Origin: an uncultured archaeon
GTDB lineage: Archaea > Aenigmatarchaeota > Aenigmatarchaeia > Aenigmatarchaeales > DAIDAN01
Reading direction: 5' to 3'
Assembly (NCBI GenBank): GCA_964545795.1
Contig: CAZJGC010000002.1
Coordinates: forward strand, 1,929 to 65,928
Length of the DNA stretch: 64,000 nucleotides
The notes beneath the pieces were generated by a model. The model was not told where the DNA came from and made no database searches. It saw only the letters and a list, made by a program, of their open reading frames with translations. A program made the position numbers and the translations under genes. Below, piece after piece: positions 571 through 53,871 of the stretch (position 1 is its first letter; each line of letters begins with the position of its first letter).

Positions 571-701
571 ATCCAGAACCCATAAAACCTGCTTTTTGCA
601 AATTACAATATTCTTTATTGATTATAAATTTATTTATATTTATAATAGAGAACCAGAACAATTTGATTCTTTTGGTGCGGGGAAAGAGAGTTTCACTAAG
701 A

Positions 702-810
702 GTTGATAAGGGGTTGCATGTTTTGAACAGCCCCGCTTTTCATGCTCTTCAAAAGGGTTGATAAGGGGTTGCATGTTTTGAACAGCCCCTTATTTTGAAC
801 TCTTGAACGG
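702..810. repeat. Intergenic hairpin repeat, copy A: two tandem units of gttgataaggggttgcatgttttgaacagcccc separated by 22 nt
   Basis: The unit at 702-734 repeats exactly at 757-789. Each unit has a 7-bp stem, GGGGTTG/CAGCCCC. A near-identical copy sits at 47975-48085. Confidence 0.65.
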
Positions 811-980
811 ACTAACCGACAGGATAACTTTATCATCTTTTTATCAAATCTCAAGATAATTCTTGAGTCCTGCGCCTTTGACCTGGCTTTGTCCGTTTTC
901 CTGCAGCATGCTGCAAGAAACGTTTGGCTATCCCCGCATAATAATAAAAATATGGTAAGAATAAATTTAAAGTTATGTTA

Positions 981-47743: not shown

Positions 47744-47974
47744 AATATTTATTAAAAAAGAAAGTATAAAAAGGTTGTTAGTTGCAGCAGGATTTTTGCT
47801 GCTGAAGCCTCTTGAATCTGCCGCTATGATTTGCGGAGAAGATTTAATTTTCTCTGTATGTGATTATGAAAAATATTTTGTCGGCTTCATTTCAAGCATG
47901 GCTTATGCATTATTAAATTATGTGCAGGTTTAAAGAAAATCTGTTTTGGTGGGCCCAACGGGACTCTCAAAAGG

Positions 47975-48085
47975 GTTGATAAGGGGTTGCATGTTTTGGA
48001 CAGCCCCGCTTTTCATGTTCTTCAAAAGGGTTGATAAGGGATTTCAAGATCTACACCTTCCCTTATTTTGAACCCGCGACATCTC
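47975..48085. repeat. Intergenic hairpin repeat, copy B (related to 702-810)
   Basis: gttgataaggggttgcatgttttgGacagccccgcttttcatgTtcttcaaaagggttgataaggg...cttattttgaac differs from copy A by 2 mismatches in the first unit and a truncated second unit. Confidence 0.65.
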
Positions 48086-48298
48086 GGTTTCTTCCTGTCA
48101 TTAATCCTTGCAGGATTTCAACATGCTTTTATCAACAGATAAAAGCCGAGCACTCTATTGTCCGAATTTTTCTTTTGCTGAAGATTTTTCTTTTTAAAGA
48201 AAACTTCTCCAGACTGAGTTATGGGCCCTTTCCAAAAATAATTACTTATTAAAACTTTTAAAGTTAATTGCGAAACAAAAGAAGTGAAGGTTAACATA

Positions 48299-49018: not shown

Positions 49019-49165
49019 ATGCCAAGTAAAAGCGTTACATTAAAAGTTGATTCTGAGTTATATGACAAATATAGAGAGTATTGTAAAAAGAAAGGTTTAA
49101 TTATTTCAAGACAATTTGAAATTTTTATTGAGAATGAATTAAAAAAGAGGTCACAAAATGAATAA
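49019..49165 (+). CDS. Ribbon-helix-helix (CopG/antitoxin-like) small protein
   Basis: Manual translation: MPSKSVTLKVDSELYDKYREYCKKKGLIISRQFEIFIENELKKRSQNE. The beta-strand then two helices fit the RHH pattern. Its stop overlaps the next gene's ATG. Confidence 0.5.
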   Translation: MPSKSVTLKVDSELYDKYREYCKKKGLIISRQFEIFIENELKKRSQNE

Positions 49166-49730
49166 TATATTCAATAATCTTGATGATGAAGAGAAAATTG
49201 TATTATATTCGCTAGGAGCTTTAAATAACACTCCGCTTAGAAGCAGAATTAAAATACAAAAATTATTATTTTTGATATCAAATGTTTTTAGTGAATATAA
49301 AGATCTTCTAGAATTTGAACCACATTTGTTTGGTCCTTATAGTGAAACTTTGGAAAATATCTTAGATGATTTAATAAAATTAGGTTTGGTTGTTAAGAAA
49401 GGAGTTAAATATGAATTAACTGAAAAAGGAAAGAAATTGTATGCACACCTTAAACCTAAGAAAGAATTAATAAAAGTTATAGAAGACTTTAAAGAATTTC
49501 TAAATGACTTGCCGGATGATGAAATCCTTGCTTTTGTATATGTAACTTATCCTGATTATATTAGTGAATCTGCCAAGTGGGATGAATTAAAAAAAGACAG
49601 AGTAGAAATTGCAATATCCTTGTTAAAGAAAGAGAAAGTTAGTTTTGGCAAAGCTGTAGAAATCTCTGGTTTAACTTCTCAAAAATTTGAAAAAATTTTA
49701 GAAGAGAGGGGCATCAAATGGAAGAAGTGA
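49158..49730 (+). CDS. Panacea (DUF4065)-like N-domain fused to a UPF0175-like antitoxin C-domain
   Basis: RSRIKIQKLLFLIS...FGPYSETL is Panacea-like. C-terminus: KVSFGKAVEISGLTSQKFEKILEERGIKW, compared with the UPF0175 consensus slgkAAElaGmsrweF.elL.erGIp. Confidence 0.5.
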   Translation: MNNIFNNLDDEEKIVLYSLGALNNTPLRSRIKIQKLLFLISNVFSEYKDLLEFEPHLFGPYSETLENILDDLIKLGLVVKKGVKYELTEKGKKLYAHLKPKKELIKVIEDFKEFLNDLPDDEILAFVYVTYPDYISESAKWDELKKDRVEIAISLLKKEKVSFGKAVEISGLTSQKFEKILEERGIKWKK

Positions 49731-50290
49731 CTACAAAGATATTGGATAATACTGTGCTCTCTGCAAGCATAAAAGAGATTAAATGTATCGATTTAATTAA
49801 GACCTGTTCTTCAAAATATAACCTTGCCACGACAGAAGAAGTCTTTGATGAGTGCCAAGATGGTTTTGATGGCATACAGATAGAAGAACAATTAAAGTTA
49901 ATTGATGTACATAATTTAATGAATAATGAAAAATACTGTGAATTAAAAGATTTTTTATTAGCCAGGTATCCTTATTTACACAAAGGGGAGATTTCATCTT
50001 TTTTATTATCTCTTTTGAAGTTTGAATTAAGTTGTATTCCATACTATTTTGTTACAGATGATAATAAAATGCGTAAGGTTGTATCGAAAATCCATGAAGA
50101 CACATTGTTTATATCAAAGCTGGGGAAAAATATTAGAAGATTTAGAATGACAGGAACTATAGGATTAATAAAGAGAATGTATATTAGAGGTATAATTTCA
50201 CAAGAAGATATTGATAAAATAATTGGAGACCTACAAAACAGTACATTTCGTATAACTCCTGATTTGATAAACTATTTGCGAGGTAGTTAA
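49718..50290 (+). CDS. DUF3368-like predicted PIN-domain nuclease (putative toxin partner of UPF0175)
   Basis: KILDNTVL..., HKGEISSFLLSL...FVTDDNKMRKV...TGTIGLIKRMYIRGIIS matches the GEaeaI...DDrkaR...GTlGvL pattern. Confidence 0.5.
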   Translation: MEEVTTKILDNTVLSASIKEIKCIDLIKTCSSKYNLATTEEVFDECQDGFDGIQIEEQLKLIDVHNLMNNEKYCELKDFLLARYPYLHKGEISSFLLSLLKFELSCIPYYFVTDDNKMRKVVSKIHEDTLFISKLGKNIRRFRMTGTIGLIKRMYIRGIISQEDIDKIIGDLQNSTFRITPDLINYLRGS

Positions 50291-50291
50291 T

Positions 50292-51368
50292 ATGAAACTA
50301 AAAGTAAAACTAGATAATATTGATGAAGAATTAATGTTTAAGAGAATTATATTTAAGGTAGGAGATAAAAAAGTCGTGACTCCAATTAAAGTTAGTCATA
50401 AACAGAATCCTATCAGTCATATAAATGAAATCTACAAAAAGTTTGATTCAATTAAACTGGATAAATGTGCGAACGATGAATCTTTTGAAAGAAAAATAAA
50501 CTCAGAATTGAAGAATTTAATGACACAAGGAATTAATGTTTGTTTAGTTGATTATGCTGACTTAAAAATACCCACTAGTGCGCAATTGGAAACTTTATCT
50601 GATTTACAATACGAGCATAGCGATATAGTTACAACACCTATTATGTCAAAGATAATGAGAGACAAAGAAATATATGTTGGAGAAAAATTAATTAATACAT
50701 TTCTTAATGTAGCGAACAAGTATATAGAGATTGTTGAAACGCTAAATAATAAATCTATTATGGGTGTGATACCTTCAAAAATACCTCGACTATTCTTAGA
50801 ACCCATAATTAAAAATTATCATAACAGAGGTGTGAACTCGTTTATCTTAGATTTGGATGGAAGGTCTATAGAAAGTAATCTTAGTTGGATAAGAAAATTG
50901 ATGAGATTATTAAAAGAATATGATTTAATAGAAGTATCTGTACTTTACACTGTTAATTCTAATAAAGGAAAGTTTATGAAAAATGCGACAGAAATATTGG
51001 CTAAGGACTTTATAAGCGCTGGCTTTGGGGCTGATATTTTAGGCCTTAACCATATTCCTCTAAGGATGCCCTCTGAAGCATGGATTAAAATAAAAATGCA
51101 AAGAAGAGAGAACACATTGAGATTATTTAATAAAAGAAGTTACGGTTATCTAAAAAAGACAGAAACAGAACTAAAACAATTAGGCCTCTATAATAGGAAT
51201 GAAATAGAAAATTTCAACATCTCAGAACAATTCAAAGAAACACAAGTTTTACAACAAAAGTTAAAAGAAGAGAACACTATAGAACCTTACATTAAATCAA
51301 AATCACAAGTTAAGGAAGATGTTATAAAGAAAATAAAGAAGATCAGATCTAATACATTCAGAAGGTAA
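50292..51368 (+). CDS. Uncharacterised 358-aa protein inside the cassette
   Basis: No recognisable motifs. Tightly packed between the DUF3368 gene (1-nt gap) and mod (4-nt gap). Confidence 0.5.
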   Translation: MKLKVKLDNIDEELMFKRIIFKVGDKKVVTPIKVSHKQNPISHINEIYKKFDSIKLDKCANDESFERKINSELKNLMTQGINVCLVDYADLKIPTSAQLETLSDLQYEHSDIVTTPIMSKIMRDKEIYVGEKLINTFLNVANKYIEIVETLNNKSIMGVIPSKIPRLFLEPIIKNYHNRGVNSFILDLDGRSIESNLSWIRKLMRLLKEYDLIEVSVLYTVNSNKGKFMKNATEILAKDFISAGFGADILGLNHIPLRMPSEAWIKIKMQRRENTLRLFNKRSYGYLKKTETELKQLGLYNRNEIENFNISEQFKETQVLQQKLKEENTIEPYIKSKSQVKEDVIKKIKKIRSNTFRR

Positions 51369-51372
51369 TAAC

Positions 51373-53871
51373 ATGGCAAGAAAGAAAATTATAAAGAAAG
51401 ATGAAATAAAACAGTACATTCATGAAGATAAACAGAGAGTGAATAATCCCCCTGTTGGCTTAGTGAGTGCAGAAACTGACAAGCTAAATGGCAAAAAAAC
51501 TTACAAGTTTGACCCACATCTTGATCCAGAACTTCAATGGGCAGGCAAAGCAGAAGGAGTCAGTTTTGAAGTTGATACTGTTTCTCTCCATGTTCATGAA
51601 AGAATAGACCCACTAACAATTATCGAAGCAGTTAAAAAGAAGGATTTAAAAGAACAACAAACACTGTTCCATTATTTTGAAAGTCCATCTGAGAATCTTC
51701 CAATTAGAGAAGCTATAGAGTTCTATAAACATTCTCATGGTTGGTCTAACAGGCTTATAGCAGGGGATTCTCTTCTTGTTATGAATTCTTTATTAGAAAA
51801 AGAAGGAATGGCTGGAAAAGTGCAAATGATTTATATTGATCCGCCCTACGGTATAAAATACAGTTCTAATTTCCAACCATTTGTCAATAAGAGAGATGTA
51901 AAAGATGGCAAAGACGAAGACTTAACTCAAGAACCAGAGATGATTAAAGCATTCAGAGATACTTGGGAATTAGGTATTCACTCCTATTTGACATATCTTA
52001 GAAATAGATTACTTTTAGCAAGAGAACTATTAACTGAAAGCGGAAGCATTTTTGTGCAGATCTCAGATGAAAATTTGCATCATGTCAGAGAAATAATGGA
52101 TGAAATTTTTGGACCAGAGAATTTTATGTACATTATTCCTTTTAGGACAGCCATTAGTACTAATATGATATATTCTATTGCAGATTTCCTTATCTGGTAT
52201 GCAAAAAATAAAAAAGAAGTAAAATTCAACAAACTATTGGATAAAAGATCTCAAGAGAATATAAACAAGACTTTTAATTGGATTGAACTATATAATGATA
52301 TAGAAAGACCTATTAAACCAAAAGAAATATCAGAAAATAATATTCCTAATGGTAAGAGATTTAAACCTGTCGATATCACTAGTAAGAGTGGTTCTGAAGA
52401 GAATTATTTCCCTATAAAGTTAAAAGGCAAAGTATTTTACCCACCTAAAGGAAAATTTTGGTTCTTTAATAAAGAAGGTTTTGAGAAACTAAAAAAAGAA
52501 AATCGTTTTGTAATTATAAACAACAAACTATATGGAAAAAAGTATGAAAGTGATTTCCCCTATATGTTACAGACAAATCTGTGGACTGATACTGCTTCAA
52601 GTACATTCTCTTCAGATAAGATTTATGTCGTTCAAACAAATACAAAAGTTGTTGAAAGGTGTATCTTAATGACTACTGATCCAGGAGATTTAGTTTTTGA
52701 TCCGACTTGCGGTTCAGGAACAACTGCTTTTGTTGCGGAAAAATGGGGTAGAAGATGGATAACTTGTGATACTTCAAGGGTTGCAATAGCATTAGCAAAG
52801 CAAAGGTTAATGACAGCTGTTTTTGATTATTATGAATTAGCTCATCCCGATGAAGGAATCTCGAGTGGTTTTAATTATAAGAAATTCAAACATAGAAGCT
52901 TAAAAGCTCTAGCTAGAAATGAGCCTTATCGTGAGACCGTTCTTTATGATCAACCAATAATTGACAAAAACAAGAAAAGAGTAACTGGTCCTTTCACTGT
53001 TGAGGCAGTTCCTTCTCAAAGAGTTTGGTCTTTTGAGGAAGTTGAAAAAGCAAGGCAAGAGGCAGATATGAGTATCGCCAGAGAAGGAGAAACAGTAAAA
53101 CAAAATGATTGGATTGACAAGATGCTTTCATCAGGAATTAGGGGAAAAGGTGGACAAATTCTTGAATTTGCAAGAATTGAATTATTACCTGGAACAAGAT
53201 GGATTCATGCAGAAGCAGAAACAAAAGACGGACAAAGAGCAGTAATATCTTTTGGTCCTGAATATGCTCCATTAGAGCAAAGACAAGTAGAGTTAGCAAT
53301 TGAAGAGGCACAAACATTAGTTCCGAAACCAAAATTAGTAATTTTTGCATCTTTCCAATTCGATCCCGAAGCTGCAAAAGATATTGATGAATTAAAATGG
53401 CCTGGCGTCACAGTCTTAAAAGCTCAAATGGATACTGATTTGCTTACAGAAGATTTGAAGAAAAAACCAAAGGATTCGCCCGCATTTTGGTTGATAGGAC
53501 AGCCTGATGTTGAACTCACTAAAAAGGGAGATAAATATATTGTTACGGTCAATGGCTTTGATTACTACAACACAAAAACTAGTGAAATTGAATCAGGAGA
53601 TGTTTCAAAAATAGCAATGTGGGAATTAGATACTGATTATGATGGAAGAAGTCTCTATCCAAGGCAGGTATTTTTCCCAATAGCTGGTTCAAAAGAAGGA
53701 TGGAGTAAACTTGCAAGAAGTCTTAAAGCACAGATTGACGAAGAACTGATTGAAAAATATAGAGGAAATGTTTCTTTACCATTCAAATTAGGAAAAAACA
53801 AACAGATTGCTGTAAAAATAATTGATGATAGAGGAATTGAATCTCTAAAAATAATAAAGGTAAGAGAATGA
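51373..53871 (+). CDS. mod: Type III restriction-modification Mod subunit (beta-class N6A/N4C DNA methyltransferase)
   Basis: Motif IV IYIDPPYGI comes before motif I FDPTCGSGTT, which is the beta-class permutation. 832 aa. Confidence 0.75.
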   Translation: MARKKIIKKDEIKQYIHEDKQRVNNPPVGLVSAETDKLNGKKTYKFDPHLDPELQWAGKAEGVSFEVDTVSLHVHERIDPLTIIEAVKKKDLKEQQTLFHYFESPSENLPIREAIEFYKHSHGWSNRLIAGDSLLVMNSLLEKEGMAGKVQMIYIDPPYGIKYSSNFQPFVNKRDVKDGKDEDLTQEPEMIKAFRDTWELGIHSYLTYLRNRLLLARELLTESGSIFVQISDENLHHVREIMDEIFGPENFMYIIPFRTAISTNMIYSIADFLIWYAKNKKEVKFNKLLDKRSQENINKTFNWIELYNDIERPIKPKEISENNIPNGKRFKPVDITSKSGSEENYFPIKLKGKVFYPPKGKFWFFNKEGFEKLKKENRFVIINNKLYGKKYESDFPYMLQTNLWTDTASSTFSSDKIYVVQTNTKVVERCILMTTDPGDLVFDPTCGSGTTAFVAEKWGRRWITCDTSRVAIALAKQRLMTAVFDYYELAHPDEGISSGFNYKKFKHRSLKALARNEPYRETVLYDQPIIDKNKKRVTGPFTVEAVPSQRVWSFEEVEKARQEADMSIAREGETVKQNDWIDKMLSSGIRGKGGQILEFARIELLPGTRWIHAEAETKDGQRAVISFGPEYAPLEQRQVELAIEEAQTLVPKPKLVIFASFQFDPEAAKDIDELKWPGVTVLKAQMDTDLLTEDLKKKPKDSPAFWLIGQPDVELTKKGDKYIVTVNGFDYYNTKTSEIESGDVSKIAMWELDTDYDGRSLYPRQVFFPIAGSKEGWSKLARSLKAQIDEELIEKYRGNVSLPFKLGKNKQIAVKIIDDRGIESLKIIKVRE

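Follow-up and report, generated by a model that had tools for sequence, protein, structure and literature searches.

What is a hairpin-containing repeat, found in two copies about 47 kb apart, doing between the protein-coding genes of an archaeon? Within the window, by which we mean the whole 64,000-nt stretch of DNA that was analysed, an earlier note had recognized a 33-nt unit (GTTGATAAGGGGTTGCATGTTTTGAACAGCCCC) arranged as a doublet, and both units are present as described, the first at 702-734 and the second, after a 22-nt linker (735-756), at 757-789 (copy A). The 25-nt core motif has three exact or near-exact matches in the window (710-734, 765-789 and 47983-48007), against an expectation of zero from 100 shuffles, and TRF reports copy A as a tandem repeat of period 55, with 1.9 copies and 86% matches, across 698-804. 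The near-identical copy placed at approximately 47975-48085 (copy B) also exists, its first unit and its linker each differing by 1 nt, but the similarity does not extend to the whole of its second unit: the frame GTTGATAAGGG...CCCTTATTTTGAAC is kept, whereas the hairpin interior differs (GGGATTTCAAGATCTACACCTTCCC) yet still pairs. Because of this different interior, TRF calls no tandem repeat at copy B.

Genomic setting of the repeat

The surroundings of the element in other genomes point to its nature. When each GTDB species, represented by a single genome, was scanned for the frame GTTGATAAGGG-N10-40-CCCTTATTTTGA, 12 loci were returned, 10 of them in archaeal MAGs that are labelled Aenigmatarchaeota or are unclassified, one in Micrarchaeota and one on a Gracilibacteria contig; the archaeal MAGs carry 2-3 loci each. 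At every archaeal locus, the plus-strand flanks comprise TGGTG, a GC-rich 7-mer and CGGGA before the element and TTTTGAACCCGCGAC after it. These flanks are the reverse complement of the 3' end of a tRNA, namely CCA, the discriminator, the acceptor strand and the T-arm, which places the element within the T-loop of tRNA genes that run on the opposite strand. The description of both copies as intergenic thus holds only relative to protein-coding ORFs, since both are located inside unannotated minus-strand tRNA genes; the interval that had been singled out, 702-810, corresponds to most of the intron at position 59/60 of a tRNA-Leu gene together with the 5' half of its T-arm.

Neither gene is visible to standard searches. 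ARAGORN, applied to the whole 64-kb window with and without its intron mode (-i), returned no tRNA genes, and Rfam searches, run over the whole window at gathering thresholds and at E<=0.5 and over 560-1020 at E<=10, gave only chance miRNA and CRISPR-DR matches. A custom scan of the whole window for acceptor- and T-stem complementarity recovered exactly the tRNA-Leu gene (as 937..677) and the tRNA-Lys gene (as 48228..47951), each followed by ACCA, and nothing else convincing. Several other identities were considered for the element and rejected: a CRISPR mini-array, because the 22-nt "spacer" is conserved between both copies, and K-turn, C/D-box and H/ACA readings, which were evaluated by eye on both strands, the G-A pairs of the putative K-turn being present on the antisense strand only and out of register.

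The proteins encoded in the window (S8e, PheRS alpha/beta, EF-1beta and eIF-type factors) are archaeal, and a few of its ORFs have homologs of 27-48% identity on archaeal MAG contigs. For the flanking genes, no synteny between the window and the MAG loci was found, the homologs being scattered elsewhere, and an exact-protein look-up of the neighbour genes returned the same organism only (L001, L002). The encoded proteins and these homologs, taken with the distribution of the intron family described below, on which the assignment mainly depends, suggest a DPANN archaeon that belongs to Aenigmatarchaeota or is close to it. The neighbour that had been called histone-like is a 54-aa ORF on the minus strand (1017-1181), and its match to DUF1931 is sub-threshold only (E=0.0099, 16.5 bits, cutoff 21.8). 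A terminator-like hairpin at 993-1008 separates this ORF from the tRNA-Leu gene.

Two triple-interrupted tRNA genes and the motif at 59/60

The better-resolved gene is that of tRNA-Lys(UUU) (48228..47947, minus strand), which has an encoded CCA, three introns, a fully paired acceptor stem (GGGCCCA/UGGGCCC, 7/7) and the anticodon loop CTTTTAA. The unspliced sequence receives no ARAGORN call, and removal of all three introns yields a 77-nt tRNA-Lys(ttt) with a clean cloverleaf. Its canonical 37/38 intron (51 nt, 48089..48139, minus strand) displays a textbook hBHBh' motif, cucgg[CUUU](UA|U)cuguug...ugacag[GAAG](AA|A)ccgag, and is the top match of an unbiased BHB scan, with 4/4 pairs in the central helix and with 5 and 6 bp in the outer ones. 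The D-loop intron, also of 51 nt (48158..48208, minus strand), is supported by in silico splicing and by a BHB read from the sequence, in which the central helix GUCU/GGAC is 4/4 paired, the bulges are GG|A and AA|U and the inner helix is GAA/UUC; once this intron is taken out, the D-loop has the canonical form AGUCUGGUA. The third intron is copy B itself, a 103-nt insertion at T-loop position 59/60 (48066..47964, minus strand) with the same doubled architecture as copy A. When only this T-loop insert is removed, ARAGORN proposes a tRNA-Phe(aaa) with a 98-nt intron; we rejected this call in favour of a three-intron Lys(UUU) because of the two 4/4 BHBs and the presence of an ortholog at the MAG locus L011.

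The tRNA-Leu(CAA) gene (937..673, minus strand) likewise has an encoded CCA and three interruptions, together with a long variable arm, a 7/7-paired acceptor stem (GCGGGGA/UCCCCGC) and the anticodon loop CTCAAGA. No ARAGORN call is obtained for the unspliced gene, removal of the T-loop and 37/38 inserts is sufficient for a tRNA-Leu(caa) call, and the gene spliced in silico gives a clean tRNA-Leu(caa) cloverleaf of 84-90 nt. Copy A is the 104-nt T-loop intron at 59/60 of this gene (793..690, minus strand), delimited by splicing, TRF and the family alignment. The canonical 37/38 intron (36 nt, 826..861, minus strand), identified from the spliced call and a BHB read from the sequence, has a relaxed motif with 2/4 central pairs, CAGGA[CUCA](AG|A)AUUAUC...GAUGAU[AAAG](UU|A)UCCUG. 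The weakest part of the gene model is the D-loop insertion of 35-41 nt (approximately 884..924, minus strand), which is based on splicing and hand analysis: its borders are ambiguous because AGCCA and CAAA are repeated, and brute-force D-loop deletions revealed ARAGORN to be too permissive to fix them. Read as 923..888, removal of the insert restores a 13-nt class-II D-loop, AAGCCAGGUCAAA; hand analysis of the insert found no convincing BHB. The tRNA-Leu model is less secure than that of tRNA-Lys because of this D-loop result and the 2/4 pairing at 37/38.

The T-arm, like the anticodon arm, consists of a 5-bp stem and a 7-nt loop, and on this geometric ground position 59/60 may be regarded as the structural counterpart of 37/38. 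In both spliced window tRNAs, the T-stem has 5 bp, the 7-nt T-loop reads UUCAAAU (TTCAAAT in the DNA) and ACCA is encoded. In the pre-tRNAs, pairing is possible between U54-A57 of the T-loop and the tetranucleotide UGAA (Leu) or UGAG (Lys) at the intron's 3' end; the 4-bp central helix so formed has a 3-nt bulge on either side and stacks on the 5-bp T-stem. The motif of copy A (684..804, minus strand) is composed of the T-stem AAGAG (804-800)/CUCUU (688-684), the 4/4-paired central helix UUCA (799-796)/UGAA (695-692), the 5' bulge A58 A59|A (795-793) and the 3' bulge A C|U60 (691-689). In copy B (47958..48077, minus strand), the T-stem GCGGG (48077-48073)/CCCGU (47962-47958) is followed by the central helix UUCA (48072-48069)/UGAG (47969-47966), which is 4/4 paired with one G-U, and by the bulges A A|A and A G|U60, with the inner helix AAGGG/CCCUU adjacent.

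On the intron side of the 5' bulge, the conserved hairpin AUAAGGG...CCCUUAU provides the helix; the window copies could in addition form a short helix, AAGGG/CCCUU or UAAG/CUUA, directly adjacent. This inner helix is imperfect or non-adjacent, with one mismatch or a 1-nt bulge in the window copies, and most family members have extra sequence between the hairpin and the central helix. As modelled, the T-loop motifs of the window are slightly relaxed rather than strict hBHBh' motifs. A strict BHB scan, which refuses a mismatch beside a bulge, misses both the T-loop and the D-loop motifs, and a relaxed scan combined with a hand check was used for them. The BHB fold is not the MFE structure: the best BHB-containing folds have energies of -29.6 kcal/mol for copy A (MFE, -32.7) and -26.4 kcal/mol for copy B (MFE, -30.6), the BHB-constrained folds lie 1.3-4.5 kcal/mol above the MFE in 8/8 genes tested, and a competitor in which intron AACCC pairs with G51-U55 is often more stable. 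The arrangement shares with the canonical archaeal 37/38 hBHBh' intron the 5-bp stem, the four loop bases paired to the 3' end of the intron, the two 3-nt bulges and the predicted cuts after the second bulge base, and differs from it in location, in length and in its imperfect or branched inner helix.

Judged from the sequence, the element is very probably a BHB intron located at T-loop position 59/60 of two triple-interrupted tRNA genes on the minus strand, from whose transcripts it would be excised. An archaeal EndA would cut each bulge behind its second base, and the exons would then be joined by an RtcB-type ligase to give the T-loop UUCAAAU. EndAs of the L3-loop alpha4 type occur in several DPANN lineages (PMC5829648).

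A homologous intron family and its possible mobility

A metagenome scan added 39 further loci. Once duplicates and non-tRNA matches had been removed from the GTDB and metagenome loci, there were 22 distinct tRNA genes from Aenigmatarchaeota MAGs and metagenomes, the two of the window included, in all of which the insert lies exactly after UUCAAA. The excluded pattern matches that are not tRNA-associated comprise nine metagenome loci (L017, L019, L021, L023, L028, L031, L043, L049 and L051) and two Gracilibacteria loci (L008 and L052). In all 22 genes, the halves of the T-stem are complementary at 5/5 positions and the acceptor stems at 7/7. ARAGORN made no tRNA call on the non-tRNA decoys; the 3'-exon finder, however, produces spurious pairings on AT-rich decoys, so that stem complementarity alone is no proof, and an independent feature of the 3' junction was used. 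The heptamer WGRR-NN|U, which played no part in site selection, coincides with the inferred 3' splice site of 20 of the 22 genes, compared with a background of 0.56% of intron-internal positions. A central helix with an A57-A mismatch (3/4 paired) was observed in 12 of the 22 members, and no recognisable central helix was found in L011 and L042.

The family introns range from 46 to 279 nt, and those at 59/60 cover 15 different anticodons. With the insert removed, ARAGORN identifies the host genes as Ala(CGC), Ala(UGC), Arg(GCG), Asp(GUC), Glu(CUC), Gly(GCC), Gly(UCC), Ile, Leu(CAA), Leu(UAG), Lys(UUU), Pro(GGG), Ser(UGA), Ser(CGA), Tyr(GUA) and Val(CAC), and many of these genes carry a 37/38 intron too. 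Sequence comparison thus groups these introns into one homologous family, which occupies position 59/60 in tRNA genes of many identities from Aenigmatarchaeota-like DPANN archaea.

The short introns have a common layout, consisting of the hairpin, UCAACCC, WUCCGNGCC, an A-rich stretch and WGRR-NN|U. Thirteen distinct tRNA genes have the identical hairpin interior GGGCGCCUUCCCCGCCC, and members differ in the first variable pair of the conserved hairpin stem, which may be C-G, A-U or G-C. The window introns are a doubled version of the short layout. Copy A is the internally duplicated form, with a period of 55, and is composed of the hairpin AUAAGGGGCUG..CAACCCCUUAU, CAACCC, a linker, a second hairpin and UGAA-AC; the internal junction of the window introns keeps a pseudo 3' splice module, CCCUU-U-UGAA-GA. 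The long introns of the family share a degenerate copy of a tRNA 3' exon (..AAUCCUUCCCUGCACCC..) despite the differing identities of their host tRNAs.

The repeated, hairpin-containing family that had been suspected is therefore genuine, and the alternative explanation of its two window copies, a segmental duplication including the flanking sequence, fails: compared over their entire length, the T-loop introns are 84% identical (87/104), whereas the similarity drops to 56% (51/91) in the flanking exons that make up the mature tRNAs. Both window introns carry the same derived 55-nt tandem duplication, which together with the difference in identity points to transfer or homogenisation of the intron. 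The tRNA-Lys(UUU) gene of L011 has the same anticodon and a near-identical sequence in the variable region and the 5' part of the T-arm, but its intron is a single unit of 48 nt. These sequence relationships are most simply explained by copying of the duplicated intron from one of the two genes to the other, 47 kb away, or by homogenisation between them. Internal tandem duplication lengthens the family introns and has produced the 55-nt doublet of the window, and the intron probably moves, or is homogenised, between tRNA genes.

At the locus L020, the intron core is situated in the D-loop of a tRNA-Leu(UAG), after GGUCAA, and has its own 4/4 central helix, GGUC/GACC; in the tRNA-Leu(UAG) of L010, the D-loop is intact and the intron is in the T-loop. 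The insertion sites of these two genes both follow G-G-U-(U)-C-A-A. This shift of position between D-loop and T-loop is seen in the comparison of these two loci, outside the window.

As an addition to the intron model and not as its competitor, the excised intron, probably circular, could itself be functional or an active mobile element, although we consider this rather unlikely. An identical hairpin interior in thirteen genes goes far beyond the needs of a BHB helix, the same core is found at two tRNA positions that share UCAAA, the degenerate exon copy of the long introns looks as if exon sequence had been co-mobilised, and stable circles are known to arise from archaeal and metazoan tRNA introns (PMC4536317). 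The high identity, however, may reflect recent spread among close genomes from the same environments; moreover, no antisense target was found, the intron has no Rfam family, no C/D or H/ACA boxes are recognisable by eye and the hairpin interiors of the window copies have diverged. In its most specific form, this addition supposes an active, site-specific mobile BHB intron that reinserts, probably as a circle, at GGU(U)CAAA in the T- or D-loops of other pre-tRNAs or tRNA genes. We regard this version as doubtful; if it applied, 3'-exon sequence would sometimes be carried along, and the near-invariant 25-nt hairpin and the UCAACCC box would represent a mobility or recognition determinant, or would reflect a trans-acting function of the free intron.

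Alternative readings, known systems and the missing tRNAs of DPANN

A MITE-like hairpin with a preference for T-loops might have inserted into both tRNA genes and inactivated them, with nothing being spliced. The element is indeed repeated, hairpin-rich and internally duplicating, in L020 it occupies a second target that resembles the first, and the D-loop insert of tRNA-Leu is devoid of a recognisable BHB. Against this, the 22 genes, for all the variety of their stem sequences, retain perfect complementarity in the acceptor stems (7/7) and T-stems (5/5), and the T-stem changes in Lys(UUU) are compensatory (GCGGG/CCCGU in the window versus GCGUG/CACGC in L011). The conservation of WGRR-NN|U at the 3' junction of 20/22 genes makes sense only if the junction is used, and the family interrupts genes for 15 anticodons in small-genome archaea. 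Moreover, the junctions that were inspected have no target-site duplication or terminal inverted repeats bracketing the insert, and no free-standing copy was found within the window. We therefore regard inactivation of both genes as very unlikely. A REP/MITE-like element, considered in the earlier note, is not what these copies represent. The family resembles such repeats in being short, repeated and hairpin-forming, with several copies per genome, and it behaves partly as a spreading element; it differs from them in that it is neither intergenic nor dispersed but occupies a defined tRNA position, with splice motifs at its flanks instead of target-site duplications, and every window copy is at T-loop 59/60 of one of the two tRNA genes.

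The other suggestions, in which the element would act from the plus strand of an intergenic region as small RNA, intrinsic terminator or protein-binding site, are extremely unlikely. In their favour, the stem GGGGUUG/CAGCCCC contains a G-U pair on the plus strand, in place of which the actual minus-strand RNA has a C-A mismatch, UUAUUUU follows the second unit, and copy A gives z = -3.4 when its plus strand is folded. However, this z value is due to the internal repeat, that of copy B being -0.3; the terminator scan flags only 993-1008 and nothing at the element; and the protein genes on either side of each copy are all encoded on the minus strand, with no plus-strand gene ending upstream of copy A or B. 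Rfam has no match, the motif copies in the window all belong to T-loop 59/60 of minus-strand tRNA genes, and every homolog is embedded in the reverse complement of the 3' half of a tRNA, for which a plus-strand function offers no explanation.

The BHB-intron reading places the element among documented features, since both 59/60 introns and the transposition of tRNA introns have already been described, and the window introns belong to this known kind. In ARMAN-2 (Candidatus Micrarchaeum), BHB introns are present at 59/60 in pre-tRNA-Cys(GCA) and pre-tRNA-Pro(GGG) (Fujishima et al. 2011, PMC3239211), and the EndA of this organism is of the epsilon2 type. The genes described here resemble those of ARMAN-2 in the T-loop insertion point, in their assignment to the DPANN superphylum, in the BHB or relaxed-BHB junction and in the presence of several introns per tRNA gene that are missed by standard finders. 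Unlike in ARMAN-2, one homologous, sequence-conserved 59/60 family is found in 22 genes with 15 anticodons, the introns are much longer (46-279 nt in the family, 103-104 nt in the window) and, in the window, internally duplicated, and the lineage is Aenigmatarchaeota-like. In the literature searched, we found no published description of an Aenigmatarchaeota 59/60 intron family.

In Thermoproteales, tRNA genes contain up to three introns, and similar introns have been transposed among tRNA species (PMC4033280; PMC8450103). The present case is similar in the number of introns per gene, in the occurrence of similar introns in different tRNA species and in the non-canonical positions, including D- and T-loops; homologous introns across tRNA identities and the same intron at different positions, the two hallmarks of the Thermoproteales type, are both found here. 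Unlike in Thermoproteales, which belong to TACK, the family is found in DPANN, is focused on 59/60 with one D-loop variant observed and has grown by tandem duplication that includes the 3' splice-site module.

An unexplained "intergenic repeat" has thus turned into two essential genes, tRNA-Leu(CAA) and tRNA-Lys(UUU), that ARAGORN and Rfam had missed entirely. Kaneta et al. noted that the incomplete tRNA sets of new DPANN genomes imply undetected disrupted genes (PMC5829648), and in a 2026 preprint, tRNAs are still reported as missing from complete Nanobdellota genomes (10.64898/2026.05.13.725050). Hidden intron-bearing genes of the type described here bear on these recurring reports of "missing tRNAs" in DPANN (PMC5829648; bioRxiv 10.64898/2026.05.13.725050). 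The BHB models of tRNAscan-SE 2.0 were trained on Crenarchaeota, Euryarchaeota and Thaumarchaeota (PMC8450103). The sequence signature of the family, GGUUCAAA|AUAAGGG...CCCUUAUCAACCC...WGRR-NN|U, could serve to find disrupted tRNA genes throughout Aenigmatarchaeota and as training material for intron models of clades outside the reach of the current tools. Because a near-identical core is present in many tRNAs and at two positions, with a shared duplication in the window, the family also offers a tractable case of the spread and growth of archaeal tRNA introns. If the intron were indeed mobile, it would constitute a natural system for working out how the protein-spliced introns of archaea are gained.

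Intron core and modules among the T-loop introns

In two tRNA-Leu(UAG) genes from our genome and metagenome pattern scans, the same intron core (AUAAGGGCGCCUUCCCCGCCCUUAUCAACCC...) occupies different positions. At locus L020 it interrupts the D-loop, at locus L010 the T-loop of the corresponding gene, and in both it is directly preceded on its 5' side by GGU(U)CAA. The L020 gene, for which the minus strand of the locus is the tRNA strand, starts approximately 137 nt from the contig end, and its T-loop carries another insert, different from the intron core and truncated by the contig end.

Modules are also shared among the long introns of the family (125-279 nt). The T-loop introns of L007, L010, L014, L026 and L032 have a degenerate tRNA 3'-exon copy (..UGAAAAAUCCUUCCCUGCACCC..) in common, and this copy recurs in more diverged form in the T-loop introns of L015, L033 and L039; the host genes of these introns differ (Val, Leu, Ala, Arg and Ser). 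A second module, a hairpin (GGGGCUCUGCCCC..UUUCCAAACCCC), is present in one to three copies in long family introns, and L007, L010 and L014 carry it in their flanks as well.

D-loop inserts and surroundings of the window tRNA genes

The D-loop insertion of tRNA-Leu(CAA) (window 884-924, minus strand) folds as a long palindromic hairpin (UGCAGCAUGCUGCA), and a search of this insertion for a bulge-helix-bulge motif found none. It includes the stretch GCAGGAAAACGGAC, which resembles the 3' part of the class-II D-arm of haloarchaeal tRNA-Leu. A bidirectional terminator-like hairpin with U-runs (AGGCGGAAAACCGCCU) at 993-1008 separates the 54-aa DUF1931-like ORF, which lies immediately upstream of it, from the tRNA-Leu gene, whose 5' end is approximately 55 nt further downstream.

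The D-loop intron of tRNA-Lys (48158-48208) has 16 of 17 nt (AAAAAUCUUCAGCAAAA) in common with the T-loop intron of L035, the host of which is a tRNA-Ile-like gene. An equal or higher score was obtained in 0 of 300 shuffles; because the stretch is A-rich, this match is a weak indication that AAAAAUCUUCAGCAAAA is an intron module common to the two. When the T-loop intron was the sole one removed, ARAGORN -i called a tRNA-Phe(aaa) with a 98-nt intron at 47947-48228; we reject this call, in which an A/U-rich part of the D-loop intron was taken for the anticodon arm, and regard the region as an annotation pitfall.

Elsewhere in the window, an 832-aa ORF (51373-53871, plus strand) contains IYIDPPYG, which we take to be motif IV of N6-adenine/N4-cytosine DNA methyltransferases, and small ORFs without known function lie upstream of it (49158-51368). 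Together these ORFs could represent a restriction-modification or defence island.

Extent of the intron family

A separate conserved element, GGAGAUGAAAUUUCAAAAUAAGGGAGCAGUUC...GCUCCCUUAUCAAU, fits the search pattern at nine loci (L017, L019, L021, L023, L028, L031, L043, L049 and L051). Since it has neither T-stem/acceptor context nor a tRNA call at these loci, this hairpin-containing element is unrelated to the family. The approximately 600 nt around the pattern match of L003 include another T-arm-like site (..GACCCGGGUUCAAA|AUAAGGG..) near the first, pointing to an adjacent tRNA gene whose T-loop holds a related intron that the exact pattern missed. The intron family therefore probably exceeds the 22 genes counted.
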